Of a stretch of DNA of 64,000 nt, positions 39,016 to 59,507 are shown one piece after another. The notes beneath the pieces are model-generated. The model searched no databases. It had not been told where the DNA came from and saw only the letters and a program-made list of their open reading frames with translations. Location: positions 1 through 64,000 of IMG/VR virus record IMGVR_UViG_3300032309_000634; one strand, written 5' to 3'. The first letter of the stretch is position 1. Each line of letters begins with the position of its first letter. The DNA is from a virus. The position numbers and the translations under genes are program-made.

Positions 39016-39049
39016 ATATCTCCTACCCCTTATTATAGCAGGCTAAGGG

Positions 39050-41080
39050 TTAGTAAAGTTTAATCTCACAAGCATCAGTAGAGCAATAAGACTCTCCTTC
39101 TGCCTCAAGATTTTCAACTCCATCATAGATAGCAGACCAATCAATCTTGGCAATTGTGCCCACATAAGAGTTATATTCTTCTTTTGTTATCTCTGTATAT
39201 GGTTGTTGTGGATAAGTTTTATTCCCCATTGGAAGGAAAGAAACTGCCTTTAGCTGTCCTTCGTACATATTAAGGGCAGGTGCGACAAACTTCTTTTCTG
39301 TTTCTTTATCAAAAGAAAGAGTAACGGAAACGCCATTATCTGACCAGTACTTCTGAGCAGTAGCTGCTAAACCAATCTTTTCAAATAAACTTACTTCCTT
39401 TTCTGATCTCTTGTGACCAGATGCTACTGGGAAATAGACTACAGATGTATTGGCTGATACTACATCGTCTTCAATTTTATATCCCGCTGCCTTAAACAAA
39501 TGAAGCATTGGATCTGTATTTCCAAAACGAATAGATCTTAGGTAGAACTCTCCACCTGGGCCCCAGTGAACTCCTGGAGTTGCTCCAGATAATAACGATA
39601 CAGATCCTGATGGTTTAACTGTTGTTACACGAACAGACTCTCTAACGCATAGCCATTCTGAGTATTTGTGATCATAATGACGGATCTTTTGATACCCTTC
39701 ATCCATCCATTCACGAGTTGTTGGTAATCCATAGGTATCTGCAAAAGATGCAATTCCAGTTAAAGATGTTCCAATACGTCTATTTCTTTGCATGATACCG
39801 TTTGTTTGCTGCCAATGTGTTGGCATTAGTGTAACAGTCTTACCATAAAGATAAGCAAATTTCAATGTCTTGAGGAAGTCCTCCTTGGATTCATGACGAT
39901 TTAAATGCACTTCTACAAGTGTACAAAGTTCGTATGACTCCAATGGCTGCTCCGCACAAGGATTGAATCCCATGATACGGGAATCTTTATAGTCTGGTGC
40001 ATCTGCTAAACGACCATACTCTCTTGCAACATCTAACCAAATAAATCCTGGTTCACCATTATCTGCAATTAAATCAACATAGTCTTCATATTTAGTACCA
40101 ACAGTAGCAGAAATAGAATTATTAGACATCCATGCCCAGCCTGGTTTTTCTGGATCAAATGAATTTCTTTCAGGAAATACTTCTGGATTCTTTAAATTGA
40201 TAAAACCATTGTCTTCTGGTGTTCCTAAAGCTAAAGTAGCAGAACGTCTAACATTTCCAGAAACAACACATGTTCCAATAAGATTAACAATGTCAACAAT
40301 TGCACGACTGTCTAGTACTTCTCCTGCTCTAGAGCCAATGACATTTCGTATGCGTATGTGTAGTTGAATTAATGGTTCTGGACCGCTAGCGACCCCACCA
40401 AAGCCCTTAATGGCTGATCCTAGAGGACGGATAAGGTCATAGTTAAATTCTTGAATAGATTGATTTTGGCGTAGAAATGAATTAATTAAAAGACGAACAG
40501 ATTCAACCCATCCTTCACGAGTATCTGGAATTTCATAGGTAGAAACTGGCTCTGTAGGGGCATAGATAGGCATTTGCTTATCTTGTCCCAAGGTATCAAA
40601 ACCTACTCCAATTCCTAACATTAAAGCATCCATTACCCAAGCAAAAAGGGCACCTGGATCATTACGATCAATGTCACGGGTAGAAACCATTGCACAATTT
40701 TGCAGTGAGGCTGAGTTTCTTTTCTCCATAGTCATTGGAGTTCCGAAAGCCCAAAGACCTCTGCCTGGAGGTGTCCACTTTAATTCAAACATTCTTTGGA
40801 AAGCTTCTTGTGCTGACTTTTGTGATTTATTATCGTTCCAAGGAAGTCTATTATCTTTGGCATGATTTTTTTGAACTGAATACATACCCTCAATTACACG
40901 ACGACAAACTTCATGCCAACGTTCTTTTGTTCCATCTTCTTTGACACGAGAATATGTACGAATAAAAGTAATTTCTCCTAAAGAGTTGCTACCCGCATCT
41001 GAAAATCCAAACGGTGCTGGAGTATTACTATATTTATTTACAAAATCCTCTGATAAGCGAAACGAAAAAACATCTGACAT
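39050..41080 (-). CDS. nrdJ: Class II (B12-dependent) ribonucleotide reductase, RTPR type
   Basis: PPGRGLW, NPCAEQPL..LCTL, TVKPSG, C-terminal CxxxxC. Confidence 0.93.
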   Translation of the reverse strand: MSDVFSFRLSEDFVNKYSNTPAPFGFSDAGSNSLGEITFIRTYSRVKEDGTKERWHEVCRRVIEGMYSVQKNHAKDNRLPWNDNKSQKSAQEAFQRMFELKWTPPGRGLWAFGTPMTMEKRNSASLQNCAMVSTRDIDRNDPGALFAWVMDALMLGIGVGFDTLGQDKQMPIYAPTEPVSTYEIPDTREGWVESVRLLINSFLRQNQSIQEFNYDLIRPLGSAIKGFGGVASGPEPLIQLHIRIRNVIGSRAGEVLDSRAIVDIVNLIGTCVVSGNVRRSATLALGTPEDNGFINLKNPEVFPERNSFDPEKPGWAWMSNNSISATVGTKYEDYVDLIADNGEPGFIWLDVAREYGRLADAPDYKDSRIMGFNPCAEQPLESYELCTLVEVHLNRHESKEDFLKTLKFAYLYGKTVTLMPTHWQQTNGIMQRNRRIGTSLTGIASFADTYGLPTTREWMDEGYQKIRHYDHKYSEWLCVRESVRVTTVKPSGSVSLLSGATPGVHWGPGGEFYLRSIRFGNTDPMLHLFKAAGYKIEDDVVSANTSVVYFPVASGHKRSEKEVSLFEKIGLAATAQKYWSDNGVSVTLSFDKETEKKFVAPALNMYEGQLKAVSFLPMGNKTYPQQPYTEITKEEYNSYVGTIAKIDWSAIYDGVENLEAEGESYCSTDACEIKLY

Positions 41081-41242
41081 TTAAGTATGCCACCTTTCTA
41101 ATATTGGTTGAGTACTTCTTAGAATCGGAAGTAGTCCTAAGTATAGCATAGAATTAAAAAGAATTCCACGCTCAGTTTTAATCTATCAAGTTATTGTTTA
41201 TGGTTAGTACTTTTATATAACGAAAGTGTTATAAATAAAAAA

Positions 41243-41911
41243 TTAATTATATTTACTACTGTTGATATGGCAAATTTCAATTTCATTTATATTAACATGA
41301 CTTGGTAATGATCCTACCCAATAAATAGCTTCTGCTAAATCTTCTGCGGTTAATGCATGATCCCGTTTTTGTTCTTGGGTATCAATAGTTGCTGGACAGA
41401 TTTCTGTAATCTTAATTCCAAATTGAGGAAACTCAAGTCTCATTGTATCAATTAAACCACGCTCACCTCTTTTAGCATTTGTATAATTTCCTCCACCACG
41501 ATATGGTACCTTGCCACCAAAAGAAGTAATAAAGATAATAGTTGGAGATTCTGACCTTTCCATACATGGAACAAAAAGTTGAGATAAGTACATAGGGCCA
41601 GTAACATTTATGTCATAGGCTTTTCTAAAATTTTCTGGAGTCTCATTAATAATATGAGTTGGACCTGATCCTCCTCCAGCATTATTAACCAGAAGATCTA
41701 AAGTAATATCTTTGTATTTTTCAAAGAATACCTCTATTGCTTTAGAATCTGTTATGTCTAGGTTGTATACCTCAACATTGTCAGATATTAGTTTAGATAC
41801 TTTTGAAAGATTTCTTGAAACAGCAATAACTTTGTATCCATTTTCAGACAGGCGTTTAACTGTTGCTAACCCTACACCCTTGCTTGCTCCAGTTACAATA
41901 GCTGTTTTAAT
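41243..41911 (-). CDS. Short-chain dehydrogenase/reductase, YdfG-like (start uncertain)
   Basis: TGASKGVG, NNAG, YTNAK catalytic motif, LTAEDLAEAIYWV.SLP.HVNINEIEI; the expected start position reads ATT. Confidence 0.85.
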   Translation of the reverse strand: MKTAIVTGASKGVGLATVKRLSENGYKVIAVSRNLSKVSKLISDNVEVYNLDITDSKAIEVFFEKYKDITLDLLVNNAGGGSGPTHIINETPENFRKAYDINVTGPMYLSQLFVPCMERSESPTIIFITSFGGKVPYRGGGNYTNAKRGERGLIDTMRLEFPQFGIKITEICPATIDTQEQKRDHALTAEDLAEAIYWVGSLPSHVNINEIEICHINSSKYN

Positions 41912-41912
41912 A

Positions 41913-42542
41913 TTAATGAATCCAATGTTGTGGAACCATAATCTTAGAACCACTCTTAACTAAGTGTGCTGTGTGGTGATATGGTGGTGATGGTGGGAAT
42001 ACAATAATGCTGCCTGCTTTTGGTTTTACAGCAAATGTATAATTACCATTTTTTTCTGCTTCCGCAAAATCTGGTTCTGGGCTAGACGCTTGTAGTACTC
42101 CGTCTGGGGATGCAATAGTAAAAGATATTTCTCCGCCTTCGTAATCATCATTTAAGTACATAACGAAAGAAACCTTAAGTCTGTCGTCTCCTTCTTGCTG
42201 ATCAAAGTGTGCCCCCATGTAAGTTCCAGCCTGATACTTTTTAATTGGATACATTGGGAATAGCTTAGGCTCATCTGTGATACCCTGTGCAGCAGCATAG
42301 TCTCTTGCTACATCATCAAATGCTTTTTGTAGGGTAGTATAGATATAGGTATTTTTTTCATCAGTTGTTTCTGTTAATGATATGCTTTTGTCTGTTCCAT
42401 AGACATACTCTTGTCCACTACACGCCATCCATTCGCCCCAAGGATCTTGATTGTCATTCTCAATTGCTTCAACAAGTCTTTTTGGGTCTTCAATTACATT
42501 TGTGTAATAGTAAACTTTTTCTTCAAGTATTTCTCTATCCAT
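41913..42542 (-). CDS. 2OG-Fe(II) oxygenase (prolyl 4-hydroxylase-like)
   Basis: HFD, YLNDDYEGGE, distal H, K. Confidence 0.88.
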   Translation of the reverse strand: MDREILEEKVYYYTNVIEDPKRLVEAIENDNQDPWGEWMACSGQEYVYGTDKSISLTETTDEKNTYIYTTLQKAFDDVARDYAAAQGITDEPKLFPMYPIKKYQAGTYMGAHFDQQEGDDRLKVSFVMYLNDDYEGGEISFTIASPDGVLQASSPEPDFAEAEKNGNYTFAVKPKAGSIIVFPPSPPYHHTAHLVKSGSKIMVPQHWIH

Positions 42543-42552
42543 TTAGTGCCTC

Positions 42553-43212
42553 CTAGTACCTATTCTTTTTATAGTGATCTTTTTCTTTAATGAATCCAAC
42601 AAGAACATATCTTATTGGCCCATCTCCTACATGCTTGACCCCATGTTCATATTTTTCATCGCCTGGAAAAAATAGCATAGTTCCTGGTTTAGGCCTTAAC
42701 TGGATATCAAGGTTTGGGAAAAATAACTCACCATCTACATAGTCATCATTAATATACACAATTGTAGCATATTTTATAGATGGGTCTGTTTTTTGATCCG
42801 TGTGAGATTTTAACTCTACCCCTGCCTGCATTCTTTGAATTGTTGCAAAACCACTTAAAATTAACTCTGGATCAGATTTTACTACCATTGAGTTTAAACC
42901 ATCATATAATGGTCTGTATATCTCATGGTGTAATATATTAAAGTTTTTATCTTTCCAATTTTGAGTAACTTCAAACTTACCTTCAGCAACCAGATTATCT
43001 ACATCATCTCTACCAAATTTTTGCATACAGAAGTTTTTTAAGTTTGCGTGATACTCTACTTCCCAATCTTCTTGAGATGTACTATTTATAATATCCCAAA
43101 AAATATTTATTTGATCTTGTGATAAAAAATTTTCAACAGAAAATAGTTCATCAGTGATATCTTTGACTACATAACCACTATCGGTCAACTGCTTTTTTAA
43201 GGAATCAATCAT
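42553..43212 (-). CDS. 2OG-Fe(II) oxygenase (P4H-like)
   Basis: HTD, YINDDYVDGE, HGV..R. Confidence 0.88.
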   Translation of the reverse strand: MIDSLKKQLTDSGYVVKDITDELFSVENFLSQDQINIFWDIINSTSQEDWEVEYHANLKNFCMQKFGRDDVDNLVAEGKFEVTQNWKDKNFNILHHEIYRPLYDGLNSMVVKSDPELILSGFATIQRMQAGVELKSHTDQKTDPSIKYATIVYINDDYVDGELFFPNLDIQLRPKPGTMLFFPGDEKYEHGVKHVGDGPIRYVLVGFIKEKDHYKKNRY

Positions 43213-43960
43213 TTGTAATATCTTCTACCTTGTATTTATTTCCATTAGCATCTATCTTCCAGCCTTGCTTTAGAAGATCTTGCCATTCGGCTCTTTCAAT
43301 TTCTTGTTGTGCTCTGGTTGCTTTCATTTCTTCAGCCCAAGCATCTCTTAGTTCCTGTGGATAATCAGACTCTTCTCTGTCGTCCCAGAAAGATCCAATG
43401 GTGTATCTTACTCCACTTTCTATTAAAGATACTTCGTGCATGTTGTTAAATCCCCCGTCAAATACGGCAAGCATTCCCACTTCTGGTTTAATCTCTATGT
43501 TTTGATCTGGGAACTTAAGTAGTCCCCCTTCAAAATCATCATTAAGATATAGGAAGCCTGCATAACGACTTCTTGTAAATGCGCCTGAATTCCCTTCAGC
43601 ATCTGTGTTGTCCGAGTGTATTCTTGCATATGCTCCTGGCTCCCATTTTTGTGTATGGTATCCAATCTTAGAAATTATTTTTGGATCAAGGTCATGGACT
43701 GAAGCAATAGCCTCTGGCATTGTTTTTTCAATGTCTGAAAAAATGGTTGGAGATAGTTCAGCATCAAGTAATTCTTTATCATTGTCCTGTGGTAATACTG
43801 AAGAGTATGACTCGTAAAAAGAAATAGGCATCCAAGAGATTGCACCGTTGGCTGCTTGAGCATCTAAAGCCTGAATCATTTTTTTGCAATCTTCTTTGCT
43901 TATAAAATCTTTATAAACTACTATGTCTTTTGTTAGTCTAACTTTATTGTTTAAATTCAT
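43205..43960 (-). CDS. 2OG-Fe(II) oxygenase (P4H-like)
   Basis: HSD, YLNDDFEGG, HEV..RY; start MNLNN coupled by TAATG. Confidence 0.88.
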   Translation of the reverse strand: MNLNNKVRLTKDIVVYKDFISKEDCKKMIQALDAQAANGAISWMPISFYESYSSVLPQDNDKELLDAELSPTIFSDIEKTMPEAIASVHDLDPKIISKIGYHTQKWEPGAYARIHSDNTDAEGNSGAFTRSRYAGFLYLNDDFEGGLLKFPDQNIEIKPEVGMLAVFDGGFNNMHEVSLIESGVRYTIGSFWDDREESDYPQELRDAWAEEMKATRAQQEIERAEWQDLLKQGWKIDANGNKYKVEDITND

Positions 43961-44640
43961 TATGGTTGCCTTTCTCCTGTATGTTTTGTAATCTCCCAAA
44001 AAAATGGGCAAGTAAATCTTAAACCACTTTTAATCTCAGTTACCCCATGAATATAATTTTTATCTCCTGGGAAAAAATAAGCAGCACCCTTTTTAGGTTT
44101 AAACTGAACACCCTGTATTGGGAAATATAATTCTCCACCCTCATAGTCGTCATTTAAATAAAACAAACTAGAAAGATCATAGTTAGGAAAATCATTTGGA
44201 GTTCCAGCATCGGGACCTTCATGAAGTTCTTTATCTGCATGAGGTTTTTGAAGTTGGCCAGGAAGCCATTTAACAATGGTTGTTCCAGTTGGAATAACTT
44301 CTACCTTATAAAATTCTTCAACAATAGGTTTTAATCTTTGAAATAATCCAGCAATAACTGGTGCAATAGTTGGATCATTTTTATCTAAAGATGGACTTGT
44401 TGCAACTCGGTCTTTCCAATAATCAGAATCATATACGACTGTGCCATTTTCATTTACATGGCTTTCAGTTACATCCCAAATTGTTAAAGATTTAGCAGCT
44501 TTTTCAAGAAACTCTATTTCTTCTGGAGTCATAAAGTTTTCTAGCTCAACAATCATGTCTTTGCTATCTCCAAACCACCCAGATGGAGTTATAGACGGTG
44601 TTCTTTTAACTACTGTATATGAGTCTTTGTTTTGTTCCAT
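43960..44640 (-). CDS. 2OG-Fe(II) oxygenase (P4H-like)
   Basis: HAD, YLNDDYEGGE, HGV..RF; leaderless, TGATATAAT-6 nt-ATG. Confidence 0.88.
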   Translation of the reverse strand: MEQNKDSYTVVKRTPSITPSGWFGDSKDMIVELENFMTPEEIEFLEKAAKSLTIWDVTESHVNENGTVVYDSDYWKDRVATSPSLDKNDPTIAPVIAGLFQRLKPIVEEFYKVEVIPTGTTIVKWLPGQLQKPHADKELHEGPDAGTPNDFPNYDLSSLFYLNDDYEGGELYFPIQGVQFKPKKGAAYFFPGDKNYIHGVTEIKSGLRFTCPFFWEITKHTGERQP

Positions 44641-44642
44641 AT

Positions 44643-45359
44643 TTATATTATATCACCCTTCGTATTATCTGTTACGCTTAGTTTTAATGTTTTTACCTCA
44701 TGAGACCCTTGGGTTTCTTCTTTTTCATTTACCGCATCTCTATACCAGTCTGTCCATTTCCCGACTTTGTTTATTTCTTGTGCAGCAGACCCGTAAGAAA
44801 GATTTGCATCTAGTCTTTTTCTATCATCATCTTGGTATTTAACAATTTCAATATTTGTGCCGTTTAAATTTGACAAAGATATAGGAATAATTGTAGCAAC
44901 TGGAGTTCCAGCTTTGATAACTACTCTCTTGTTTGCTACTTTTGCTTTAATAGCTAAAGGCAGAGGATTGTCATAAAAAGAGGTGCTCATTAATGATGAC
45001 ATTGTTTCAAACTCATCACTAAAATAATTTACTGGATTAATAGTAAAAATACTTACATCTTTGTCTGTTCTAAAAACTAAACCCGTATTTAAGCTTATAG
45101 AGGATTGACCTCTTCCAGAATATGCTCCTGATGGGCTAAATATTTCAATATGATCTGGGGTTTGATCATTAACTCCGTCCCAAATAAACTCAATATCCTC
45201 TACACAAGAAAGGCTCCAGCCAATTACGTTTGACTGGGTTACTGGAAAACATCTATAGGCATGGCCTTCTGATGTTACATCCATCCAATCTCTTTTAATT
45301 GACATAGGCTGAATATCAAACAAAGCCCCTTGTGTTTTTTCAACTGAGATATTAAACAT
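44643..45359 (-). CDS. DUF6065-like protein
   Basis: RDWMD..HAYRCFP..N..GW pattern; family name recalled, not searched. Confidence 0.6.
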   Translation of the reverse strand: MFNISVEKTQGALFDIQPMSIKRDWMDVTSEGHAYRCFPVTQSNVIGWSLSCVEDIEFIWDGVNDQTPDHIEIFSPSGAYSGRGQSSISLNTGLVFRTDKDVSIFTINPVNYFSDEFETMSSLMSTSFYDNPLPLAIKAKVANKRVVIKAGTPVATIIPISLSNLNGTNIEIVKYQDDDRKRLDANLSYGSAAQEINKVGKWTDWYRDAVNEKEETQGSHEVKTLKLSVTDNTKGDII

Positions 45360-46015
45360 TAGTCTGCGTCTGCGCTATACATCTCTGGAGTGTGAAACTT
45401 TTTGCTGTAATCAAGCATTGTAACAATAGAGTATTTAGTTCCAGAGGTTACTGGCATTGCTTGATGAGGATACATAAAGTTTGATGGGAAAATAAAAAGA
45501 TCTCCAGCCTCTGGCTTAACCTTTAAATTTTGTAGTCTAAAGAAAAGTTCTCCGCCCTCATAATCGTCATTAACATATGAAACCAAAGAAACCGTACAGT
45601 TGTAAGAAAAACCATGATCATGATGTTCCATAAAGTGTTGGCCTGGACCATACTTAATAAAATTAAATGCTTCCCAATATTTTAAATTATGAATATTGTA
45701 CATTCTGCAATAATCTTCTACTGCTGGTAATTTTACATCATAAAGGTCTTGCCAAAGTGATTGAAGGTTTAGACTGACTTGACTTTTATCATTTTCAATA
45801 TCTGTTTTCTTAAACTTAAAATCATTACAATCTCGATAGTCTGGCATTAGTTGCTTGTAACCTACATACGCAGGTTGCCAGCTATAGCCAGTGGTATCTC
45901 CTTCTGGTTTAAGATTATCCTCAAGTCTCTTTATTACATCAATTTCTTTTTTAATTACGCCCTTGTAAACATATATTCCATTGCCAAGGTCTACTTTCTC
46001 TGTCCATGTTTGCAT
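45359..46015 (-). CDS. 2OG-Fe(II) oxygenase (P4H-like)
   Basis: HHD, YVNDDYEGGE, HQAMPVTSGTKY. Confidence 0.88.
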   Translation of the reverse strand: MQTWTEKVDLGNGIYVYKGVIKKEIDVIKRLEDNLKPEGDTTGYSWQPAYVGYKQLMPDYRDCNDFKFKKTDIENDKSQVSLNLQSLWQDLYDVKLPAVEDYCRMYNIHNLKYWEAFNFIKYGPGQHFMEHHDHGFSYNCTVSLVSYVNDDYEGGELFFRLQNLKVKPEAGDLFIFPSNFMYPHQAMPVTSGTKYSIVTMLDYSKKFHTPEMYSADAD

Positions 46016-46024
46016 TTTATTCTC

Positions 46025-46795
46025 CTATTTGTATTCTCGTCTTGACCAAACTTTATTTTTATATACCCCGCCATCAGGCTGTCTATAAAACTTCATGTTG
46101 TTAAACATTTTATCATAAATCTCAGATTGTCCTAATATCTCTACTTCACTTTTCCAGTTTTCTCTTTTAAATGGTAAGACTTGTAGGTATGGAGTGCCTG
46201 CTGGAATTGTTCCTTCCCAACCTTCTGCAATAAAAAATGGAAAGCTTCCAAGCAAATGAACCTTGTCTGAGTCAACAATTCCTGTTGTATTTAAAAATGG
46301 TAAATCAAACCTATTCATTGGTGTCATAAATAGCGCACTATAACCTTCTGGAAGCTCAAGTCCCCAATCTGAACTCCAAGCAAAATGATGTTGATAGAAT
46401 CCTTTTGGGTGCTCAAACTGTGGCATTGGAGGTCTTTGTGTACAAAAATCTTGATATCTTTTATCTTCAATTTTTACACCAATAATCCCTTGTGCGTTTT
46501 TAGAAAATACTAAATCACAAGGAGTTTTAAAAACATATCCAGTTGAAAATGCATCCATGATTGCAGGACATGCTTTCCATGTAGGAATTTTTCCATAATC
46601 ATCTACAGTACCCTCTTTTGGAAAAGGGCACGTTTCTTTTGGTGCGTTATAGTATTCATTATTAATTGGATTTTTTGCAAATCTGTCTGCATCTTTATAC
46701 CATTGAGGAATAACATTTTGTGTTGCTGATGGAACAGAAACACTATTTTTATTTAGCCATGGTCTAAAAGATCTAAAGATTGCTAGATTGTTCAT
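46025..46795 (-). CDS. DUF6065-like / dUTPase-fold-like protein
   Basis: P.WYK..KACPAIMDAFSTGY..GIVDSD..IPAGTP..QV.PFKRE.W. Confidence 0.55.
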   Translation of the reverse strand: MNNLAIFRSFRPWLNKNSVSVPSATQNVIPQWYKDADRFAKNPINNEYYNAPKETCPFPKEGTVDDYGKIPTWKACPAIMDAFSTGYVFKTPCDLVFSKNAQGIIGVKIEDKRYQDFCTQRPPMPQFEHPKGFYQHHFAWSSDWGLELPEGYSALFMTPMNRFDLPFLNTTGIVDSDKVHLLGSFPFFIAEGWEGTIPAGTPYLQVLPFKRENWKSEVEILGQSEIYDKMFNNMKFYRQPDGGVYKNKVWSRREYK

Positions 46796-47505
46796 TAATG
46801 ACTCAGTTCGTTAATATCTGTCATAATAACAACACAATACTTTGTTCCTGATTTCATAGGTAACGATGCATGTTCGTAAATATAGTTTGAGGGGAAGATA
46901 GCTATATCTCCAACTTTTGGAGTATGAACAAAATTATCTAATCTTGGAAACTTAATCTCTCCGCCTTCATAATCATCATTAATATAGATAACAGCAGAGA
47001 CTGTACAGTTATAAGCAGGGCCATGATCAGCATGAATATTAAAATGAGTTCCTTCTCCTTCATACTTTACAAAGTTAAACGCTTCGTAATATACAACATT
47101 AATTCCCCAATAGTGGGCATAGTCATCCACACACATCTTTAGCTTTTGATAGATCTCTTCATGAAGATCAATTAAGTCTTCATTAGACTCATCTCTTGGT
47201 CCAAGATTCTCTTGCTTATATTTAAAGTCTACACAATCTCTTGCTTTTTTAATTGGAGCATCAGAATTTGTAACTTTAGCCTCTGACCATTTATATTTTT
47301 TATCTCCTGAAAGATTGTGCTCAAGTGTATTTATGTATCTTTCTGAATCATCTTTAGAAAAAACATTATGATAAATGTTTAGTCCTAATCCTGGATTACT
47401 AATAGAAATATTGCTTTGAGGCATTAATCTTTCAACTCTAGCCGAAATTGTTTCAGACCTGTCTTTTGTAAACCAATGATTGTCATTTTCATTGTAAATA
47501 TCCAT
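46795..47505 (-). CDS. 2OG-Fe(II) oxygenase (P4H-like), close paralogue of 45359-46015
   Basis: HAD, YNCTVS, YINDDYEGGE, HASLPMKSGTKY. Confidence 0.88.
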   Translation of the reverse strand: MDIYNENDNHWFTKDRSETISARVERLMPQSNISISNPGLGLNIYHNVFSKDDSERYINTLEHNLSGDKKYKWSEAKVTNSDAPIKKARDCVDFKYKQENLGPRDESNEDLIDLHEEIYQKLKMCVDDYAHYWGINVVYYEAFNFVKYEGEGTHFNIHADHGPAYNCTVSAVIYINDDYEGGEIKFPRLDNFVHTPKVGDIAIFPSNYIYEHASLPMKSGTKYCVVIMTDINELSH

Positions 47506-47595
47506 ACTTGTCCCCTTTTAAACCTTGATAATTTATTATAGCATATTCCTTTATATTTAACAAAAAATGCCTAAGTGCTAGCACTTTTATTTTTA

Positions 47596-48150
47596 TTAAA
47601 TCCAACAAATTAATTGATATTTATTGCCATTTTTAACTTCATGCTCTGTATACTCATATTCTGCTGGGTGAATAATAAGCTGCCCAGATTTTGGTTTAAT
47701 TTTTATGCCTAAATTTAAAAACTCTATTTCTCCACCATCATAGTTATCATTAATAGAATATTTAAAAGAAACTTTTTTGGTATTTTCATTTCCATAATTA
47801 TCTTTCATCTGGACCTGTTTGGCCCCATCTTCAGACTTAGTAAAATAAAAACTATAAAATAACGGTTTAGGAATATTATTTTTTTTAAAATATTTTATTG
47901 CTGATTCTGTAAACACTTCGGATGATATTTTAGATAAATCATGTAATAATAAATTTAATCCACTTTCTTTATTTACTTTAGATTCATCTTCAAAATTTAA
48001 AAAACCAATATGTTTATGCTTTAAGCTCAAGGGAGATGTTTCTGTCCATTTAAAGTCAGTGTTAAACTCACACATATCTTCTATACCGTCTATTGTTTCA
48101 TTTAAATCAATGTTTACATCATATAAATATATACCATGAGAAATTTCCAT
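47596..48150 (-). CDS. Degenerate 2OG-Fe(II) oxygenase lacking the iron-binding histidines
   Basis: NDNYDGGEIEF..KPKSG..V.NG.KY retained; HxD reads MKD and the distal His reads Y. Confidence 0.7.
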   Translation of the reverse strand: MEISHGIYLYDVNIDLNETIDGIEDMCEFNTDFKWTETSPLSLKHKHIGFLNFEDESKVNKESGLNLLLHDLSKISSEVFTESAIKYFKKNNIPKPLFYSFYFTKSEDGAKQVQMKDNYGNENTKKVSFKYSINDNYDGGEIEFLNLGIKIKPKSGQLIIHPAEYEYTEHEVKNGNKYQLICWI

Positions 48151-48350
48151 TACCATTTACCAATTGGGCAAGTTGCCTCTTCTAGCTTAGTTTTAAGATT
48201 CATGAAACAACCACATTTTTTGCACTGTTTACTTAGTTTAATAAAGTGCTCGCAACCTTTACAAATAGAAAATCTATCTATAGCAACCTCATCTAAAGAT
48301 CTAGGTTTATTTGGATTTAATAAATCCCAAGGTTTTACTGAATTGCTCAT
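48150..48350 (-). CDS. Small Cys-rich protein, copy 1 (CxxC..CKKCGCFM..CPIGKW)
   Basis: 66 aa, leaderless TGCTACAAT-6 nt-ATG; paralogue of 49435 and 63073. Confidence 0.8.
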   Translation of the reverse strand: MSNSVKPWDLLNPNKPRSLDEVAIDRFSICKGCEHFIKLSKQCKKCGCFMNLKTKLEEATCPIGKW

Positions 48351-48395
48351 TTAATAATTGTAGCATACAACTTGCTTATATACTAGTTATTATTT

Positions 48396-49373
48396 TTATG
48401 ATGTACACCTACAACATTTGTGTGCAAACAATGCTCCGCCACAGTTAGAGTTTAATGCTCCAGCGCCAGAAGCGTACCCAGAAGCAACACAGTTATCCTG
48501 ACAACTTTCCGCAGAGGGAACATGCTTATAGATAATAGTTTGGAAGTATGGGAAGAATGGAGGGAAGAAAGGTGGGAAGAACGGGAAGAAAGGTGGGAAG
48601 AATGGGAAGAAAGGTGGGAAGAACGGGAAGAAAGGAGGGAAGAATGGAGGGAAGAAAGGTGGGAAGAACGGAAAGAATGGTGGGAAGAAAGGAGGAAAGA
48701 AAGGAAAGAAAGGAAAAAACGGTGGGAAGAAAGGAGGGAAGAATGGAAAGAATGGTGGGAAGAAAGGAGGAAAAAACGGGGCTAAAGTAGTAATAGAACC
48801 AGAAGCTGCTGATAGCGCACTTGTACCATTAGCATTAGTTGCCGTTACCTTATAGGTTTGAGCAGTACCAGCAGTATCAGCAATTACGATAGGAGAAGTT
48901 GATCCAGTACCTGAAGTGCCGTCATCGCCTGTTACTGTAAAACTTGAAATTGTTTTTCCACCAGTAGCGGGGGCTGAAAAAGCAATTGAATTTTGATTAA
49001 CCCCAGCAGTTGGTGTTGGGGCTGACATTTGAGCAGGAACTGTGGTGGCTGTAATTGAGGCTGAGGCAGAGGATGCTGCAGACGTTCCTGATGCATTTGT
49101 AGCAGTAACTGTAAATGTATATGCTGTGTTAGATTGTAAACCTGCAACCGTAATGGGAGAAGATGACCCAGTTCCTGTATATCCTCCAGGAGAAGATGTT
49201 GCAGTAAATGATGTAGCTGCTGGAGATAATGCGGGTAAGGAAAATGTAACTGTTGCTGCGCCATCATTAAAGGCTCTTCCAGTTCCAACATCAGTTGCTG
49301 TAACACTAGTTGGGGCCATTGGCTCTAAAAAGTCATTTGAGGAAGCAGAACGCTTTCCAGTTTTTTTAGCCAT
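48396..49373 (-). CDS. Two Fn3-like domains + Pro/Phe repeat + 6-Cys tail (protein A)
   Basis: YTFTVTATNA Fn3 motifs; 79-aa (P)PFF tract; leaderless TGATATAAT-6 nt-ATG. Confidence 0.8.
   Translation of the reverse strand: MAKKTGKRSASSNDFLEPMAPTSVTATDVGTGRAFNDGAATVTFSLPALSPAATSFTATSSPGGYTGTGSSSPITVAGLQSNTAYTFTVTATNASGTSAASSASASITATTVPAQMSAPTPTAGVNQNSIAFSAPATGGKTISSFTVTGDDGTSGTGSTSPIVIADTAGTAQTYKVTATNANGTSALSAASGSITTLAPFFPPFFPPFFPFFPPFFPPFFPFFPFFPPFFPPFFPFFPPFFPPFFPPFFPFFPPFFPFFPPFFPFFPPFFPPFFPYFQTIIYKHVPSAESCQDNCVASGYASGAGALNSNCGGALFAHKCCRCTS
48543..48779 (-). repeat. Coding (P)PFF repeat of protein A
   Basis: 21 PFF/PPFF units plus PYF; plus strand almost all purine. Confidence 0.95.
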
Positions 49374-49434
49374 TTAGTTATTATATCATGGATTTATAGC
49401 ATAAATAAACATTTTTTAATAAATAAATCTAAGG

Positions 49435-49668
49435 CTACCATTTACCTATTGGGCATTTAGCAATTTCTAATTTAGTTTTAAATTTCATAAAACAACCACA
49501 TTTTTTACATTGAGATGTTAGTTTAATTAGTTCTGGGCAAGATTTACAAATATTAAACCTTTTTGAAGCATCTTCTTCAGATAGATGTCTTGTATTTGGA
49601 TTAAGCATATCTAGTGGAGTTGCACCATTTTTTTCTTTATATTTTTCCCATGCACTTTTTTCTGACAA
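49435..49668 (-). CDS. Small Cys-rich protein, copy 2
   Basis: CKSC..CKKCGCFM..CPIGKW; TTG start after AAGGGG. Confidence 0.8.
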   Translation of the reverse strand: MSEKSAWEKYKEKNGATPLDMLNPNTRHLSEEDASKRFNICKSCPELIKLTSQCKKCGCFMKFKTKLEIAKCPIGKW

Positions 49669-49704
49669 GGTAAACCCCTTTATTGTAGTTATATAATAAA
49701 AAAA

Positions 49705-50151
49705 TTAAAGTTTTGGATTAGGTACATAATTTGGATTTTTAGGATTATAAGGACCATATTCTGGTAATTGTAAAAGTTCGGCAACTGTTCTACCTTTAAG
49801 ATTAAACTTTTCGCCATCAAATGTGGCATTTGGAGCCATAACATAATATCCATAAGGATATTCATTTAAATCAAGAACTGTTGGGTTACTTAATAAAATT
49901 GAACCAAAATATTCATTGGTCTGATAAACTTCAATTTCATCATTTTCTTTAATAATTTGAAGGGTAGATCCATCATGCTCTGGATAATCAGAAGATATAT
50001 CTGTAATACCTTTATTTTTTGTAAATAAATCAATACCATAAAGTGTTGCATTAAAATTATAAAGACACTCACCATCAATAACAAATACTAATGGTGCTCC
50101 TGCTAACTTGTCTCTACTAAAAACATGTTGAATATCAATATCTTTAATCAT
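49705..50151 (-). CDS. Hypothetical protein
   Basis: 148 aa, SD AAGGA, TGATATACT upstream. Confidence 0.65.
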   Translation of the reverse strand: MIKDIDIQHVFSRDKLAGAPLVFVIDGECLYNFNATLYGIDLFTKNKGITDISSDYPEHDGSTLQIIKENDEIEVYQTNEYFGSILLSNPTVLDLNEYPYGYYVMAPNATFDGEKFNLKGRTVAELLQLPEYGPYNPKNPNYVPNPKL

Positions 50152-50185
50152 TAGTTATCCTTTTCTTTAGATAAGTATATCATGC

Positions 50186-51151
50186 TTAGTAACAGGCTCT
50201 ACCACTGTTTCCGTATACATAACACTGGTCGGGATAGCCACACATGTCATCGTAGAACTGCGAGTAGCTGCATCCATTTTGCGAAACGAAGGACGGGAAG
50301 AAAGGTGGGAAGAACGGGAAGAAAGGTGGGAAGAATGGGAAGAAAGGTGGGAAGAACGGGAAGAAAGGAGGGAAGAATGGAGGGAAGAAAGGTGGGAAGA
50401 ACGGGAAAAAAGGTGGGAAGAACGGTGGAAAGAACGGAAAGAAAGGAAAGAACGGTGGGAAGAACGGTGGAAAGAAAGGAAAGAATGGTGGAAAAAATGG
50501 CGGGAAGAATGGGGCCAATGTAGTAATAGAACCAGATGCTGCAGAAGCAATGCTTGTACCATTGGCGTTAGTTGCAGTAACTGTATAGGTCTGTGACGTT
50601 CCAGCAGTATCTGCAATTACAATAGGAGAAGTGGCACCAGAGCCAGAAGTTCCATCACTACCTGTTACTGTAAAGCTTGAAATTGCTTTTCCACCTGTTG
50701 CTGGTGCTGAGAAGGCAATAGAGTTTGAGTTTACACCTGCGGTAGGTGTTGGAGCAGACATTTGAGCGGGAACTGTTGTTCCAGTTACTGAAGAAGATGT
50801 TGTTCCTGTTGCAGTACCAGCAGCATTTGATGCTCTAACTGTAAATGTATATGCTGTATTTGAAGCAAGTCCCTGAAATGTATAAGATGGGGTTGAACTT
50901 CCTGTTGTTACAGTATAAGTTGAAGGAGTTGTTGTAATTGTATAAGATGTTGCTGCTGGAGACAAAGCTGGAAGGGTCCATGCAAGGCTTGCAGCGGCTC
51001 CTGTGCCTGCTGCTGAAGCTGCTGAAGTAGTATTTGCGGTTGCTAAATAGGGACGGGATGTACCAACATCTGAGGCTGTTAAGCTTGTTACATTTAATGG
51101 CTCTAAGAAATCATTAGAAGCTGATGAACGCTTACCTGTTTTTTTAGCCAT
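50186..51151 (-). CDS. Two Fn3-like domains + Pro/Phe repeat + 4-Cys tail (protein B)
   Basis: Paralogue of A (MAKKTGKRS.S.NDFLEP); 75-aa (P)PFF tract. Confidence 0.8.
   Translation of the reverse strand: MAKKTGKRSSASNDFLEPLNVTSLTASDVGTSRPYLATANTTSAASAAGTGAAASLAWTLPALSPAATSYTITTTPSTYTVTTGSSTPSYTFQGLASNTAYTFTVRASNAAGTATGTTSSSVTGTTVPAQMSAPTPTAGVNSNSIAFSAPATGGKAISSFTVTGSDGTSGSGATSPIVIADTAGTSQTYTVTATNANGTSIASAASGSITTLAPFFPPFFPPFFPFFPPFFPPFFPFFPFFPPFFPPFFPFFPPFFPPFFPPFFPFFPPFFPFFPPFFPFFPPFFPSFVSQNGCSYSQFYDDMCGYPDQCYVYGNSGRACY
50288..50512 (-). repeat. Coding (P)PFF repeat of protein B
   Basis: 20 units plus PSF, same unit order as in A. Confidence 0.95.
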
Positions 51152-51164
51152 TTAGGTTCCCTTA

Positions 51165-53237
51165 CTAAGCTGTTAGATCGCCGTAAACAACCCAAGTGTT
51201 TGTTGCTCTCTTGAAAAGAGTTGCAGTTGACCATTGTGTTCTTAATTTTAATCCTGGTGTTGAGTTTACTGTTACTCCAGCATCTCCTGCAATTGTTACC
51301 TGACCTGTTGAGGTTTGAAGGATATCAATTGAGGTTCCAACTGGGAAGGCTACTGCTGAGTTTAGTGGAATTGTAAGAGTCATTGCTGAAGCAGAACCCA
51401 TTTCAATTAAATCATCTCTTTCAGTTAGTGCTGAAAGTGTGTATGATGCTGTCTTTTGAATAATAGGTGTACGTGATGGAACTCCTTCAAGAGTTTGTGT
51501 TCCGTCTGTAAATATAAAACCACCAGCTGTTGAGCTAATAACTGCGGTTCCATTTACCTTTAAATCTTTTCCTGAAGCAAGGTTAATATGCTCTGAAGAA
51601 GTCCAAGAATCTGTTGCATCTACCCAGTTAAAGGTTTTATCAGTTGCGCCCTTAAGTGTAATTCCGCCACCGTCTGCAGTGGTATCAGTAGGGCTTCCTG
51701 TGTCTCCAAGAACAATATTTTTGTCTTCAATAACAAGGTTAGTTGAGTTAAGGTTTGTTGTAGTTCCGTTAACTGTTAAGTTCCCAGAAAGAGTAAGGTC
51801 TGCTGCGTTTACTGTTCCTGTAAAAGTAGGTGATGCAAGAGGTGACTTTAGGTCAAGTGCTGTTTGCTGAGCAGTTGATACTGGCTTGTTGGCATCTGAA
51901 GTATTGTCAACATTTCCAAGTCCAACATCTGATTTTGTGATTCCAGTAGGTGTATTAATTACTGGAGAGGTTAAAGTTTTGTTAGTTAGAGTTTCAGTCT
52001 TAGAAGCAGTTGACTTAGCATCTAACTGTGTTTGAATGCTTGAAGTAACACCATCTAAGTATCCAATTTCAACATCTGATACGTTAGCAACAGTTGCTTG
52101 CTTGCCGTTTAGTTGAGTTTGAATTGCTGAAGTAACTCCATTAAGATATCCAATTTCTGTGTCTGAAACATCGGCAACGATTGCTTGCTTGTTGTTTAAT
52201 TGTGTTTGAATAGCTGAAGTAACTCCATCTACATAGTTAAGTTCAGTTACAGATAAAGTTGCACCGTCAAGAATATTTAATTCTGCAGCGGTAGAAGTAA
52301 TTCCAGCTAATGTATTAATTTCAGCTGAAGTTGCAGTAACTCCAGCAAGCTTATTTAACTCTGCTGTGGTAGCTGTAACACCATCAAGGATGTTTAATTC
52401 TGTTGCAGATGAAGTCAAAGCTGCAAGAACATTTATTTGTGCTGCTGTTGCTGTTACTCCATCAAGAATGTTTAGCTCTGCTGTAGACGAAGTAATTCCA
52501 TCAAGTACGTTTAGTTCTGTGGCAGTTGCTGATAAAATAACATCTTCGTTAATTTTTGGGGAAGTTAAAGTTTTATTAACTAATGTTTCTGTTCCATTAA
52601 TTGAAGCAACATTGTCATCAGATACTGCTGTATTTAATTGAGCAAGAGTAGTTGTTAACGTATTTGAAGATAGATTAATTGTCTTGTTAGTTAATGTTTG
52701 AGCTGTACCGTCTAGGATAACGGTTCCGTTAGAATCTGGAAATGTAATAATTCTATCTGCTGTTGGATCTACAACCTGAAGACTGGTTTCAAATCCATTT
52801 GCTGTAGTACCTTCAAATTTAATTTCAGTTTGAACTTCAAGAACTGTACTATTAATAATAGTGGTTGTTCCTGATACTGTTAAGTCTCCTGATACTGTTA
52901 CATTTCCGCTGCTGTCGGAAAGAACTACTGTTCCTGACGCATTTGGAAGTGTAATAGTACGATCACTTGTAGGATTAGTTACTTCAAGTGTAGTTTCATG
53001 TGCATCTGCAGTTGAGCCTTCAAATGTAATGCTTGTTCCAAATGATGGATTTGCTGTTGAATTAGCATCAATAAAGTAATCAAGGTTTATCCAGTGATTT
53101 GTACCATCACCAATTTTAAATTTGTTTGTATCGGTTTCGTATCCGATTTCTCCTGCATTTAGAATAGGACCGTTGCCACTGTTAGTAGAGATCCACTGTG
53201 CTGCTGTACCCCTACGCTGTTGCATTCTTGTTGCCAT
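51165..53237 (-). CDS. Fibre protein: Mtd-N-like N-terminus, 13-aa ELNxLDG repeats, C-terminal W..GDL domain
   Basis: MATRMQQRRGTAAQW..GEIGYETDT.KFKIGDG; about 8 tandem 13-mers; ends TNTWVVYGDLTA. Confidence 0.8.
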   Translation of the reverse strand: MATRMQQRRGTAAQWISTNSGNGPILNAGEIGYETDTNKFKIGDGTNHWINLDYFIDANSTANPSFGTSITFEGSTADAHETTLEVTNPTSDRTITLPNASGTVVLSDSSGNVTVSGDLTVSGTTTIINSTVLEVQTEIKFEGTTANGFETSLQVVDPTADRIITFPDSNGTVILDGTAQTLTNKTINLSSNTLTTTLAQLNTAVSDDNVASINGTETLVNKTLTSPKINEDVILSATATELNVLDGITSSTAELNILDGVTATAAQINVLAALTSSATELNILDGVTATTAELNKLAGVTATSAEINTLAGITSTAAELNILDGATLSVTELNYVDGVTSAIQTQLNNKQAIVADVSDTEIGYLNGVTSAIQTQLNGKQATVANVSDVEIGYLDGVTSSIQTQLDAKSTASKTETLTNKTLTSPVINTPTGITKSDVGLGNVDNTSDANKPVSTAQQTALDLKSPLASPTFTGTVNAADLTLSGNLTVNGTTTNLNSTNLVIEDKNIVLGDTGSPTDTTADGGGITLKGATDKTFNWVDATDSWTSSEHINLASGKDLKVNGTAVISSTAGGFIFTDGTQTLEGVPSRTPIIQKTASYTLSALTERDDLIEMGSASAMTLTIPLNSAVAFPVGTSIDILQTSTGQVTIAGDAGVTVNSTPGLKLRTQWSTATLFKRATNTWVVYGDLTA

Positions 53238-53277
53238 ATTTATGTCCTCCCAGACCTTGTTCTATTATATCAGATAA

Positions 53278-53739
53278 TTAACTAAAATTATCTAATGGAC
53301 TTCCGCCGTCGTAACTGTTGTTCCAATAATCTGAATCATAAAATCCAGCAATTTCTGTTGATGTAAAGATTGAATCATAAAACCCTGCATCTTGGAATAC
53401 TGAAACAATTAATCCAGTTCCATCAATTGCAGTATCGTGAATGTGCTGTCTAAGATCGGCAGTATCAGAGAACGTAGCAATCATAATCCAATCAGCAGCA
53501 TCTGTAGAGTATACTGATACATGGCGTGATACTGTATCAAACCATAACTGCCCATTTACTGGATTTGCTGGGGCTGTTGATGCTGGGGCAGCAACTGCTC
53601 CTTTGCTATCTACATAAAGTTTTGTTGTTGCATGTGTATCAAGAGTAGGAGTGGCAACTGTTACAGTTCCCCCGAAAGTTCCGCCTTGGGTTACATCTAA
53701 CCCGTGCTTTACCTTAAAGTCTCTATTGGTAGTTGCCAC
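53278..53739 (-). CDS. Fibre adaptor-like protein
   Basis: N-terminus RDFKVKHGL like 53759; P.NGQLWFD; C-terminal aromatic DGG motif. Confidence 0.6.
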   Translation of the reverse strand: MATTNRDFKVKHGLDVTQGGTFGGTVTVATPTLDTHATTKLYVDSKGAVAAPASTAPANPVNGQLWFDTVSRHVSVYSTDAADWIMIATFSDTADLRQHIHDTAIDGTGLIVSVFQDAGFYDSIFTSTEIAGFYDSDYWNNSYDGGSPLDNFS

Positions 53740-53758
53740 TTCTAGCCTCTTTTCCTAA

Positions 53759-55603: not shown

Positions 55604-55616
55604 TTTATCTCCTTAA

Positions 55617-56063
55617 TTAGGCCTTTAACCCAATACGCAAGTAGCGTAAGGTTATCGGGGTTTGTCCACCCACAGGTACTACAGAAAGTGAAACTGTATC
55701 GCCTGCTCTAGATACGGAGATGGTGCCAATATTCCCATCATTATCTACTGTCCCATACTCGCTGACATTTACATTTGTAGCATCAGGGACTATGGTTAAT
55801 TCTGTGGCCCAATATTTATTTGCACCGCCAGAAGTCTTTTTAATTGAGATCATGTATTTTACTGATCTCCACTCGCTTGCTAAAAAGTTATCAAAAATTG
55901 TAGTATTTTCAATACCATTAATTGTAGACTCATTGTTGCCATCTGAACCAAGGTCAGTAGAACGAGCAGAAGCACTGTCAATCAAGTCTTCGTAATTTGT
56001 TTGACTTGGACGATCTCCAGTTTGGAATAAAGCTTTTACACTTGCGATTGATATTTTAGCCAT
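55617..56063 (-). CDS. Virion protein sharing a domain with the 53759 C-terminus
   Basis: F.TGDRP N-terminus; RSVKY..SEYG domain; leaderless TGATATAAT-6 nt-ATG. Confidence 0.6.
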   Translation of the reverse strand: MAKISIASVKALFQTGDRPSQTNYEDLIDSASARSTDLGSDGNNESTINGIENTTIFDNFLASEWRSVKYMISIKKTSGGANKYWATELTIVPDATNVNVSEYGTVDNDGNIGTISVSRAGDTVSLSVVPVGGQTPITLRYLRIGLKA

Positions 56064-56086
56064 ACGCTGATTATATCACATTTATT

Positions 56087-56314
56087 TTAGATAATATAGT
56101 TAGAAAAACCAATAATTTGAACACCAATTCCAGGTGGAGCTAATGGGTTTACCCCATCTATTCCAATGTTTACAATTCGTATTTTAAAAGGTAAAGTTTC
56201 TTTTACTTGAACTTTTTTAGCATAATTTGTATTAACTGCTTTTGAAGCTTTAGGTTTTATGTCAAATATAACTTTTGAATAATGGTTTACATCTAAAACT
56301 TTTACTTTAGCCAT
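56087..56314 (-). CDS. Small basic hypothetical protein
   Basis: 75 aa, ends PPGIGVQIIGFSNYII. Confidence 0.55.
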   Translation of the reverse strand: MAKVKVLDVNHYSKVIFDIKPKASKAVNTNYAKKVQVKETLPFKIRIVNIGIDGVNPLAPPGIGVQIIGFSNYII

Positions 56315-56317
56315 TTG

Positions 56318-57252: not shown

Positions 57253-57282
57253 AATCTTATTATTATACCACTTCCTAAGAAA

Positions 57283-57372
57283 GTTATTTAAAAGTTATCA
57301 AAATGTTACCTAAAGTTTGCTTTTGAGGTCATTTTTATGTTATACTTAATACATGCTACCAACAGGTAGCAT
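57283..57372 (+). promoter_or_regulatory. Lytic transglycosylase promoter: three GTTAY boxes at 11-bp period, -35 TTGCTT, extended -10 TGTTATACT, 5'UTR hairpin
   Basis: GTTAT 57283, GTTAT 57294, GTTAC 57305; TTGCTT 57317; TATACT 57341; ATGCTACC-AACA-GGTAGCAT 57353-57372. Confidence 0.65.
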
Positions 57373-57395
57373 TTGTTCTCTAGGAGGTTATTATT

Positions 57396-59471: not shown

Positions 59472-59507
59472 GAATCACCTCTCTAAGAATTATATCACAA
59501 AGTGTGA

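Follow-up and report, generated by a model that had tools for sequence, protein, structure and literature searches.

Results

Layout of a Gene Island Pairing Pro/Phe-Tract Proteins with Oxygenases

The window analyzed here, by which we mean the whole 64,000-nucleotide stretch of viral DNA under study, corresponds to positions 1–64,000 of an IMG/VR virus record of 83,790 bases (IMGVR_UViG_3300032309_000634), classed linear and ~77% complete, and it harbors at positions 41243–51151 an island of genes that all lie on the minus strand, with intergenic gaps of 0–162 nt (table 1). Two of these genes encode proteins, hereafter PFF1 and PFF2, in which an Fn3 region is followed by a long tract of Pro and Phe (P/F), and they are found in front of an array of oxygenases of the 2-oxoglutarate (2OG)–Fe(II) type (Ox1 to Ox7), which is interspersed with two DUF6065-type genes (D6065a and D6065b) and closed by a short-chain dehydrogenase/reductase (SDR). 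This co-directional arrangement of an SDR, oxygenases, CxxC proteins, and Fn3 proteins with P/F tracts, first described in a sequence-only reading of the same DNA, is confirmed by the positions of the open reading frames (ORFs) and by Pfam matches, for which the cut-offs are 27 bits for the oxygenase family PF13640, 27 bits for DUF6171 (the family of the CxxC proteins), and 25 bits for Fn3 (PF00041), the latter being passed by both PFF1 (25.3 bits) and PFF2 (39.3 bits).

Two of the earlier counts had to be adjusted, and three genes had escaped that reading, namely those for a 148-residue protein, a third P/F-tract protein, and a third DUF6171 protein (table 1). Among the seven claimed prolyl 4-hydroxylase (P4H)-like oxygenases, six do pass PF13640, but the seventh, Ox7, stays below the cut-off and lacks the first iron-binding His; likewise, of the two claimed DUF6065-like proteins, D6065a matches PF19541 itself, whereas D6065b only shares phrog_7084 with it and matches no Pfam family. 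As judged from their sequences, the ten genes located directly behind the first set of fiber genes form a conserved candidate tailoring battery.

P/F Tracts and Their Protein Family

The longer tract, in PFF1, is composed of one Ala and 77 residues that are exclusively Pro (35) or Phe (42), and the shorter one, in PFF2, of one Ala and 73 such residues (33 Pro and 40 Phe), which bears out the initial description of two Fn3 proteins (here of ~320 residues each) with P/F-only tracts. The first 74 residues of both tracts are identical in protein, and the underlying DNA differs at 19 sites, all of which are third codon positions and none of which changes a residue. Since all 19 differences fall on third positions, the frame of the tract is real and the order of Pro and Phe is under protein-level selection; a wrong-frame artefact is ruled out by this pattern and by the fact that Fn3 region, tract, and Cys tail share a single open frame. 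Of these 19 differences, 18 lie in codons 2–37 and one in codon 74, leaving codons 38–73 identical, and gene conversion has probably acted over this second half of the repeat.

A back-translated DNA pattern of the P/F tract matched at least 118 viral stretches, and the usual build of the encoded proteins, as seen across 123 open frames, comprises a conserved N-terminal peptide, ~200 residues with Fn3, a tract of 15–456 residues, and a very variable tail. The N-terminal 198 residues of PFF1 have relatives in at least 1871 protein clusters, with no informative name among the 120 listed. In 22 fetched members, the stalk position is occupied either by P/F(/Tyr) repeats or by Pro-poor aromatic repeats such as (FTPFG)n, and the tail may be absent (as it is in many stalk-family members), consist of a short Cys-rich piece, or form a ~170-residue domain. 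We read these tract proteins as likely modular fiber-end proteins, made of a plug, Fn3, a spacer of adjustable length, and a swappable tip. The Pro-poor aromatic stalks, (FTPFG)n or (FSPFGVFG)n and hereafter called FG-type, were observed in loci L125–L190 and in proteins P0028, P0046, P0052, P0069, and P0078, and their composition is reminiscent of the FG repeats found in nuclear pore proteins. A tblastn search with PFF1 against deposited phages returned no match, part of PFF1 being possibly masked by the low-complexity filter, and a full-text literature search found no paper describing P/F stalk proteins.

Oxygenases, DUF6065-Type Proteins, and SDR of the Array

The iron triad H-x-D...H and the Lys or Arg that binds 2OG are found in six of the oxygenases of the window. 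Across their respective classes (15–76 sequences per class, with 24–97% identity to the window protein), these residues are kept as follows: H112, D114, and K200 of Ox1 in 41/41 sequences and its H193 in 39/41; H137, D139, H190, and R201 of Ox2 in 41/41; the catalytic set of Ox3 in 15/15; H134 and D136 of Ox4 in 63/63 and its H198 and R208 in 62/63; H131, D133, and H184 of Ox5, along with a basic residue that is K or R, in 76/76; and the catalytic set of Ox6 across its class. Because the catalytic residues are kept in nearly all members, the six classes are likely to be working enzymes. Ox7 reads M-K-D where the other oxygenases read H-x-D, and its best-match orthologs amount to none in 118 tract-selected loci and one in a set of closer relatives (L209).

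In comparisons with solved structures, made for two of the six classes, the Ox5 profile matched the Bacillus anthracis P4H (3itq/5hv0, E = 3e-4) and the Ox6 profile human LH3 (6fxk, E = 6e-4) and 3itq (E = 7e-4), all of these matches being marginal; overall, the matches of both profiles span E-values from 3e-4 to 1e-2 (6ax6 at 1e-2), include mimivirus L230, and, save for a 34-residue match to AdeR, consist solely of protein Pro/Lys hydroxylases. As far as sequence can tell, PF13640 and these profile matches thus support the proposal that we are dealing with protein Pro/Lys hydroxylases. NCBIfam yielded no match above threshold for the oxygenases, a generic Fe(II) dioxygenase model being hit at lower scores. 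Among deposited phages, the closest relatives of Ox5 come from cyanomyoviruses (212 records).

Regarding the other members of the battery, relatives of D6065a are present in at least 554 viral contigs, and D6065a was seen only with P/F-type arrays, whereas D6065b is the most persistent neighbor of stalk genes of both types, being present in FG-type loci as well. An hhalign comparison of the two profiles gives a weak alignment (probability 21%, E = 1e-3), PDB profile searches with D6065a and D6065b returned no solved relative at E-values up to 1, and the ESM Atlas look-up of D6065a returned DUF6065 clusters only, mostly viral, and no structure model. A tblastn search of deposited phages with D6065a gave no match, and the literature search found no paper on DUF6065. 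Distant homologs of D6065b, annotated as hypothetical and with 23–28% identity over most of its length, occur in ~49 haloarchaeal tailed viruses and in cyanophage S-RIM4. As to the remaining enzymes, Ox6 is usually the first enzyme gene behind the stalk gene, the Ox4 class also occurs in the reduced arrays of FG-stalk phages, and SDR orthologs close the array in many related loci.

The Size of the Array Follows the Type of Stalk

The sequence-only reading had let the link between the tracts and the oxygenases rest on adjacency, and proposed co-occurrence across phages as its test. We surveyed related viral records selected either by the tract or by an enzyme. Among the 46 tract-selected records of at least 25 kb, PF13640 is found in 41, of which 39 hold 6–13 matches and two a single one. 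The five records without a match are all 23–33% complete, and three of them carry their tracts in proteins of another build, whereas the four records that are at least 90% complete all hold 6–13 matches. The conserved order runs from the fiber genes to the stalk gene, sometimes followed by the 148-residue protein and DUF6171 genes, and then through Ox6, D6065b, Ox5, D6065a, Ox4, Ox3, Ox2, Ox1, and the SDR to the ribonucleotide reductase (RNR) gene.

The DNA pattern of the (FTPFG)n stalks matched 66 stretches, and the module found downstream of such stalks comprises none, one, or two D6065b-type genes, none or two oxygenases (of the Ox4 and Ox5 classes), and the SDR. The 38 FG-type records hold 0–5 PF13640 matches each, with 4, 5, 5, 2, and 3 in the five near-complete ones. 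When considering the 27 closed loci, namely those covered from the stalk gene as far as the RNR gene or the next large gene, 6–9 oxygenase genes are found in 16 of the 17 P/F-type loci and none in any of the 10 FG-type loci. In a wider set of 56 loci that are either closed or have at least 7 kb downstream, 6–9 downstream oxygenase genes are found in 30/32 P/F-type loci, 0–2 in 22/23 FG-type loci, and six in the single locus with an intermediate stalk. The two P/F exceptions are an upstream second copy and a genome with its array elsewhere; in this rearranged genome, which provides the one closed P/F-type locus devoid of a downstream array, the array lies directly behind the other P/F-tract gene, of the PFF3 type.

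Conversely, the enzyme-selected survey started from the 80 closest of the at least 554 contigs with a D6065a relative, 77 of which were new and 24 of which were too short upstream, and a P/F tract was found upstream in all 53 informative loci. Stalk and array are also both present in an estuarine contig whose D6065a relative has 38% identity. The link between tract and array is therefore no longer one of adjacency only but also one of co-occurrence (30/32 against 22/23, 53/53, and one rearrangement), and in no informative locus examined was the array found independently of a P/F-tract gene.

DUF6171 Genes and the Tips of the Stalks

The two CxxC proteins of the island had initially been counted as parts of the modification system, a role that did not hold. 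Among 106 stalk genes followed by 1.5 kb or more of sequence (loci L007–L190), 29 encode a Cys-rich tip, defined here by at least four Cys in the last 60 residues; 14 of these 29 have a DUF6171 gene behind them, as opposed to none of the 77 others (Fisher's exact test with kinship ignored, P = 7e-10). On account of these counts, DUF6171 genes belong with Cys-rich tips, and not with the tract or the array, which suggests that DUF6171 may be a dedicated partner of such tips; since the genes track Cys-rich tips only, DUF6171 was rejected as a part of the oxidation chemistry. PFF1 and PFF2 both have Cys-rich tips, each with a DUF6171 gene behind, two of the three DUF6171 matches of the window being marginal (28.5 and 28.6 bits against a cut-off of 27). 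The 148-residue protein encoded between stalk gene and DUF6171 gene has best-match orthologs in seven ORFs of related loci, at the equivalent position.

In many other members of the family (L024, L066, L077, and L116; P0025, P0028, and P0120), the ~170-residue tail domain has a Cys as its first residue, immediately behind the stalk, and His-Asn at its end. Its matches to Hint_2 or Intein_splicing (17.9–26.4 bits) are below the Pfam cut-offs, and it is partly by its motifs that we take it to be a Hint domain. If self-cleaving, such a Hint-like tail would cut at the end of the stalk.

Fiber Gene Sets and Phage Context

The window contains two sets of fiber genes, of which the second (58015–61231) has the collagen-like protein first and a third tract protein, PFF3, last. 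The Fn3 score of PFF3 (22.3 bits) is below the cut-off of 25, and PFF3 is devoid of the N-terminal peptide conserved in PFF1 and PFF2. The C-terminal 113 residues of the fiber protein encoded directly upstream of PFF2 are 44% identical to the end of the one encoded upstream of PFF3 (E = 4e-22); given this common C-terminal domain, each fiber set ends with such a protein followed by a P/F protein. The collagen-like gene and the glycosyltransferase that the sequence-only reading had placed further on are both present; the product of the former displays a G-X-Y run with X-Pro-Gly and X-Lys-Gly sites, and the gene is 13 kb away from the oxygenase array. The third DUF6171 gene adjoins the glycosyltransferase gene and is distant from any stalk gene. 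Between both fiber sets lies a gene on the plus strand (57396–57941), a strand that few genes of this region use, and its product has a hydrophobic N-terminus, no PHROG match at an E-value of 1e-3, and a motif that we take to be typical of lytic transglycosylases. A scan of positions 38500–57500 for promoters and terminators gave counts at or below the shuffled expectation, and hence no operon evidence either way.

Nearly all genes of the window are on the minus strand, and a portal, a protease, and a major head protein are recognizable. The portal is 46% identical to those of ~130-kb Streptomyces phages, the class II RNR is ~60% identical to the enzymes of Mycobacterium phage Gaia and of a lake Actinomycetia phage, and two related contigs were binned in an Acidimicrobiaceae metagenome-assembled genome (MAG). 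The source is an uncultured lake phage with a long tail, and, from the relatives of the portal and of the RNR and from this binning, it probably infects freshwater Actinobacteria. Other relatives were assigned to MAGs from unrelated phyla, the bins that hold contigs of the lineage (L269–L274) being Flavobacteriales, Luteolibacter, Beijerinckiaceae, Acidimicrobiaceae, and Chitinophagaceae; the majority of these assignments must result from faulty binning and thus make poor host evidence. The gene order around the RNR gene of Actinomycetia phage DSL-LC01 is not shared with the window, a tRNA scan across the window found none, and no DNA near-identical to the island was found in deposited phages.

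Table 1. Features of the island and of the fiber gene regions, with positions in the window.
Feature	Position	Strand	Evidence
SDR, closes the enzyme array	41243–41953	-	PF00106, 138 bits; TGxxxGxG and YxxxK motifs in translation
Ox1, 2OG–Fe(II) oxygenase	41913–42542	-	PF13640, 42.6 bits
Ox2, 2OG–Fe(II) oxygenase	42553–43212	-	PF13640, 40.7 bits
Ox3, 2OG–Fe(II) oxygenase	43205–44011	-	PF13640, 34.1 bits
Ox4, 2OG–Fe(II) oxygenase	43960–44640	-	PF13640, 34.6 bits
D6065a, DUF6065 protein	44643–45359	-	PF19541, 89 bits (cut-off 26.6); phrog_7084, E = 3e-8
Ox5, 2OG–Fe(II) oxygenase	45359–46015	-	PF13640, 55.7 bits
D6065b, phrog_7084 protein	46025–46795	-	phrog_7084, E = 4e-32; no Pfam family
Ox6, 2OG–Fe(II) oxygenase	46795–47505	-	PF13640, 42.0 bits
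Ox7, degenerate oxygenase-like gene	47596–48156	-	PF13640, 23.6 bits, below cut-off
DUF6171 Cys-rich protein number 1	48150–48350	-	PF19668, 28.5 bits; phrog_13558, E = 5e-17
PFF1, putative stalk-tip protein	48396–49373	-	Conserved N-terminus, Fn3, P/F tract 48549–48782, 6-Cys tail
DUF6171 Cys-rich protein number 2	49435–49668	-	PF19668, 28.6 bits; phrog_13558, E = 2e-17
148-residue protein	49705–50151	-	Encoded between a stalk gene and a DUF6171 gene; no match in Pfam or PHROG
PFF2, putative stalk-tip protein	50186–51151	-	N-terminus and Fn3 as in PFF1, P/F tract 50294–50515, 4-Cys tail
Tail-fiber protein directly upstream of PFF2	51165–53237	-	PF18454 Mtd_N, 45 bits; tail-fiber and minor-tail PHROGs
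Further fiber gene of the first set	53278–53739	-	Gene order conserved in related loci
Further fiber gene of the first set	53759–55603	-	phrog_38058 tail fiber, E = 3e-33; gene order conserved in related loci
PFF3	58015–58728	-	Fn3-like region, 31-residue tract 58294–58386, second domain after the tract
Fiber protein upstream of PFF3	58698–59471	-	C-terminal domain common to 51165–53237
Collagen-like fiber protein, heads the second fiber set	60494–61231	-	PF01391, 36.2 bits; tail-fiber PHROGs
Glycosyltransferase with DxD motif	62025–62639	+	PF04488, 54 bits
Third DUF6171 gene	63007–63267	+	PF19668, 37.1 bits

Discussion

Hydroxylation of the stalks by the oxygenases of the array is the best available reading of this island, albeit one whose chemistry itself is predicted and to which we would grant an even chance. 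According to it, the oxygenases would hydroxylate residues of the P/F stalks in the host cytoplasm, before or during fiber assembly, the likeliest site being peptidyl-proline in F-P-F and F-P-P-F contexts, whereby a very hydrophobic polymer prone to aggregation would become a rod of greater polarity and stiffness. Hydroxyproline has a comparable effect in collagen and in plant extensins. That the pairing of stalk and array has survived both a rearrangement and a deep divergence, each a single case, speaks for selection.

Several considerations weigh in the opposite direction. The matches to solved hydroxylases are marginal, and six oxygenases, two DUF6065-type proteins, and an SDR exceed the needs of a simple proline hydroxylation, gene sets of this sort being typical of small-molecule pathways as well. 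Since FG-type stalks go without the array in 10/10 closed loci, the enzymes are not needed for the stalk family as such, and one exceptional FG-type locus (L188) has four oxygenase genes. Moreover, all loci belong to one phage lineage with a conserved gene order, in which stalk and array are linked; as the phages are kin and the stalk and array are neighbors, the raw counts overstate the evidence, and one or a few ancestral events together with linkage could account for most of them. A tree built on the N-terminal domain interleaves P/F-type and FG-type phages and implies no fewer than 4–6 changes of stalk type, and among the four well-supported independent pairs that differ in stalk type, the array changes likewise in two to three, oppositely in none, and not at all in one to two (sign test, P = 0.25–0.5), a trend that is clean but underpowered. 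The same trend would be produced by the replacement of whole cassettes made of a stalk and its array, and recombination within the repeated DNA of the tract could alone keep the array by the tract.

With regard to these reservations, a possible, if rather doubtful, alternative is that the array is an auxiliary or secondary-metabolism module acting on a small molecule, a host protein, or a nucleic acid, and that its adjacency to the stalk gene reflects inherited gene order and linkage. The SDR and two enzyme-sized DUF6065-type proteins fit a pathway, the cyanomyovirus affinity of Ox5 and the nonsignificance of the tree-aware test are in line with this view, and the type of stalk and the size of the array could each depend on the host. 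A precedent exists as well, and counts against stalk hydroxylation: in the part of the source available to us, tandem and mutually distant 2OG/Fe dioxygenases of Synechococcus phage Syn9, with a JmjC-type member and tryptophan halogenases in their array and no P/F gene, are read as machinery for the biosynthesis of small molecules, that is, of secondary metabolites (Iyer, Abhiman, de Souza and Aravind 2010, PMC2938197). Syn9 and our phage are alike in that one phage carries many tandem, distant dioxygenases, with a target that is unassigned in both, as far as that part of the paper goes; they differ in that the JmjC and halogenase families were not found in the Pfam scan of the island and in that the array is here tied to a specific type of neighboring protein. 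A small-molecule or host-directed role leaves the constant position of the array behind the tract gene unexplained, a position that is kept in all informative enzyme-selected loci and also after rearrangement. Furthermore, no scaffold-making enzyme, halogenase, or transporter family was found in Pfam and NCBIfam scans of the island, and the tree, on which both types of phages are interleaved, has several points where the array changes in size together with the type of stalk, and none where it does so oppositely.

An unlikely alternative is that the oxygenases hydroxylate Pro and Lys of the G-X-Y repeats of the collagen-like fiber, to which the glycosyltransferase would then add sugar, as happens with the collagen of giant viruses and of animals, the P/F proteins being bystanders. 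A collagen-like protein is a textbook substrate for such enzymes. The ingredients of such a system, reminiscent of the L230-type system of mimivirus, are all in the window, where a collagen-like gene with X-Pro-Gly and X-Lys-Gly sites coexists with a hydroxylase kind and a DxD glycosyltransferase; the best solved matches include the collagen Lys hydroxylases L230 and LH3, and a collagen-like gene is found directly upstream of the stalk gene in some relatives (e.g., L018, L019, L054, and L074). Ox5 and Ox6 have the iron- and 2OG-binding residues in common with the B. anthracis P4H (3itq, 5hv0), L230, and LH3, but these matches cover the catalytic core only, and the substrates of those enzymes are collagen-like G-X-Y peptides. 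In the window, the collagen-like gene lies far from the array, by the distance given above, and collagen-like genes also occur in eight FG-type loci, the six surveyed records of which hold 0, 1 (at 18 bits, below the cut-off), 1, 2, 2, and 5 PF13640 matches. The presence of collagen-like genes in these oxygenase-poor phages implies that collagen-like fibers do not need an array of 6–9 genes, even if one or two of the oxygenases could serve the collagen-like protein.

The last alternative takes up a suggestion of the sequence-only reading, a product akin to ribosomally synthesized and post-translationally modified peptides (RiPPs), and holds that the P/F proteins are precursors of a released, oxidized peptide, with Fn3 as leader and the tract or the Cys tail as core. 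It is very improbable: the Cys-rich tails do vary strongly between phages and are accompanied by a small dedicated partner gene (DUF6171), and Ox3 has a very weak match to the cyclophane-peptide oxygenase model NF041706 (17 bits against a cut-off of 150), but the Pfam and NCBIfam scans of the island found no RiPP-class enzyme family, be it a maturase, protease, or cyclase, and no recognition element or exporter family, many stalk-family members have no tail, and the position at the end of fiber sets, the fiber-type modularity of these ~320-residue proteins, their conserved N-terminus, their Fn3, and tracts of 15–456 residues fit a spacer better than a core peptide.

Coming back to the hydroxylation of the stalks, its closest precedent is the Chlorella virus PBCV-1, whose P4H hydroxylates the virus's own Pro-rich repeats, according to a review (PMC3634087). 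In both cases, a virus encodes a P4H-type 2OG oxygenase along with Pro-rich-repeat proteins; however, PBCV-1 has one enzyme, Pro-Ala-Pro-Lys repeats, and a eukaryotic algal host, when six classes of oxygenases, DUF6065-type proteins, and an SDR are found here beside pure P/F tracts. The PBCV-1 enzyme is absent among the solved-structure matches of the Ox5 and Ox6 profiles at E-values up to 0.1.

A second comparison can be drawn with plant cell walls. In plant extensins, which are secreted, rich in Ser-Pro, and heavily glycosylated, prolyl hydroxylases of the PF13640 type turn a Pro-rich repeat that includes aromatic residues into a stiff rod. The island is similar in that it encodes a Pro-rich aromatic repeat and PF13640-type enzymes, with a glycosyltransferase gene nearby; it differs in that it is known from genes alone, secretion, glycosylation, and cross-linking being features of extensins. 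Tentatively, and with more doubt than confidence, one may thus picture an extensin-like fiber material, in which specialized hydroxylases, DUF6065-type proteins, and the SDR would convert a (PFF/PPFF)n polymer into a stiff rod with exchangeable tips. In such a material, every enzyme would be specialized for a particular residue context or position, the length of the rod would be adjustable (15–456 residues), and the tips would be either a Cys-knot with its DUF6171 partner or, in relatives, a Hint domain, the self-excision of which could chemically activate the end of the stalk for attachment.

As regards novelty, the hydroxylation by a viral P4H of its own Pro-rich repeats and the existence of tandem phage dioxygenase arrays are already known from the parts of the two papers cited above (PMC3634087; PMC2938197), the latter arrays having been noted since at least 2010 with no target assigned in the part of the source consulted (PMC2938197). 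The literature search did not find in print the family of P/F and FG stalks, its pairing with a six-class battery, or the pairing of DUF6171 with tips. The present analysis shows that a large and well-sampled lineage offers a concrete candidate substrate encoded beside an oxygenase array, within an unusual fiber design, predicted to join a conserved plug to Fn3 domains, a spacer of low complexity made of aromatic repeats, and tips that can be exchanged. A natural P/F polymer with matching hydroxylases would be of interest for materials science and for phage biology, and, if the extensin-like picture were true, the orphan oxygenase arrays of phages would have a substrate assigned for the first time, and a new kind of virion part, built post-translationally, would come to light.

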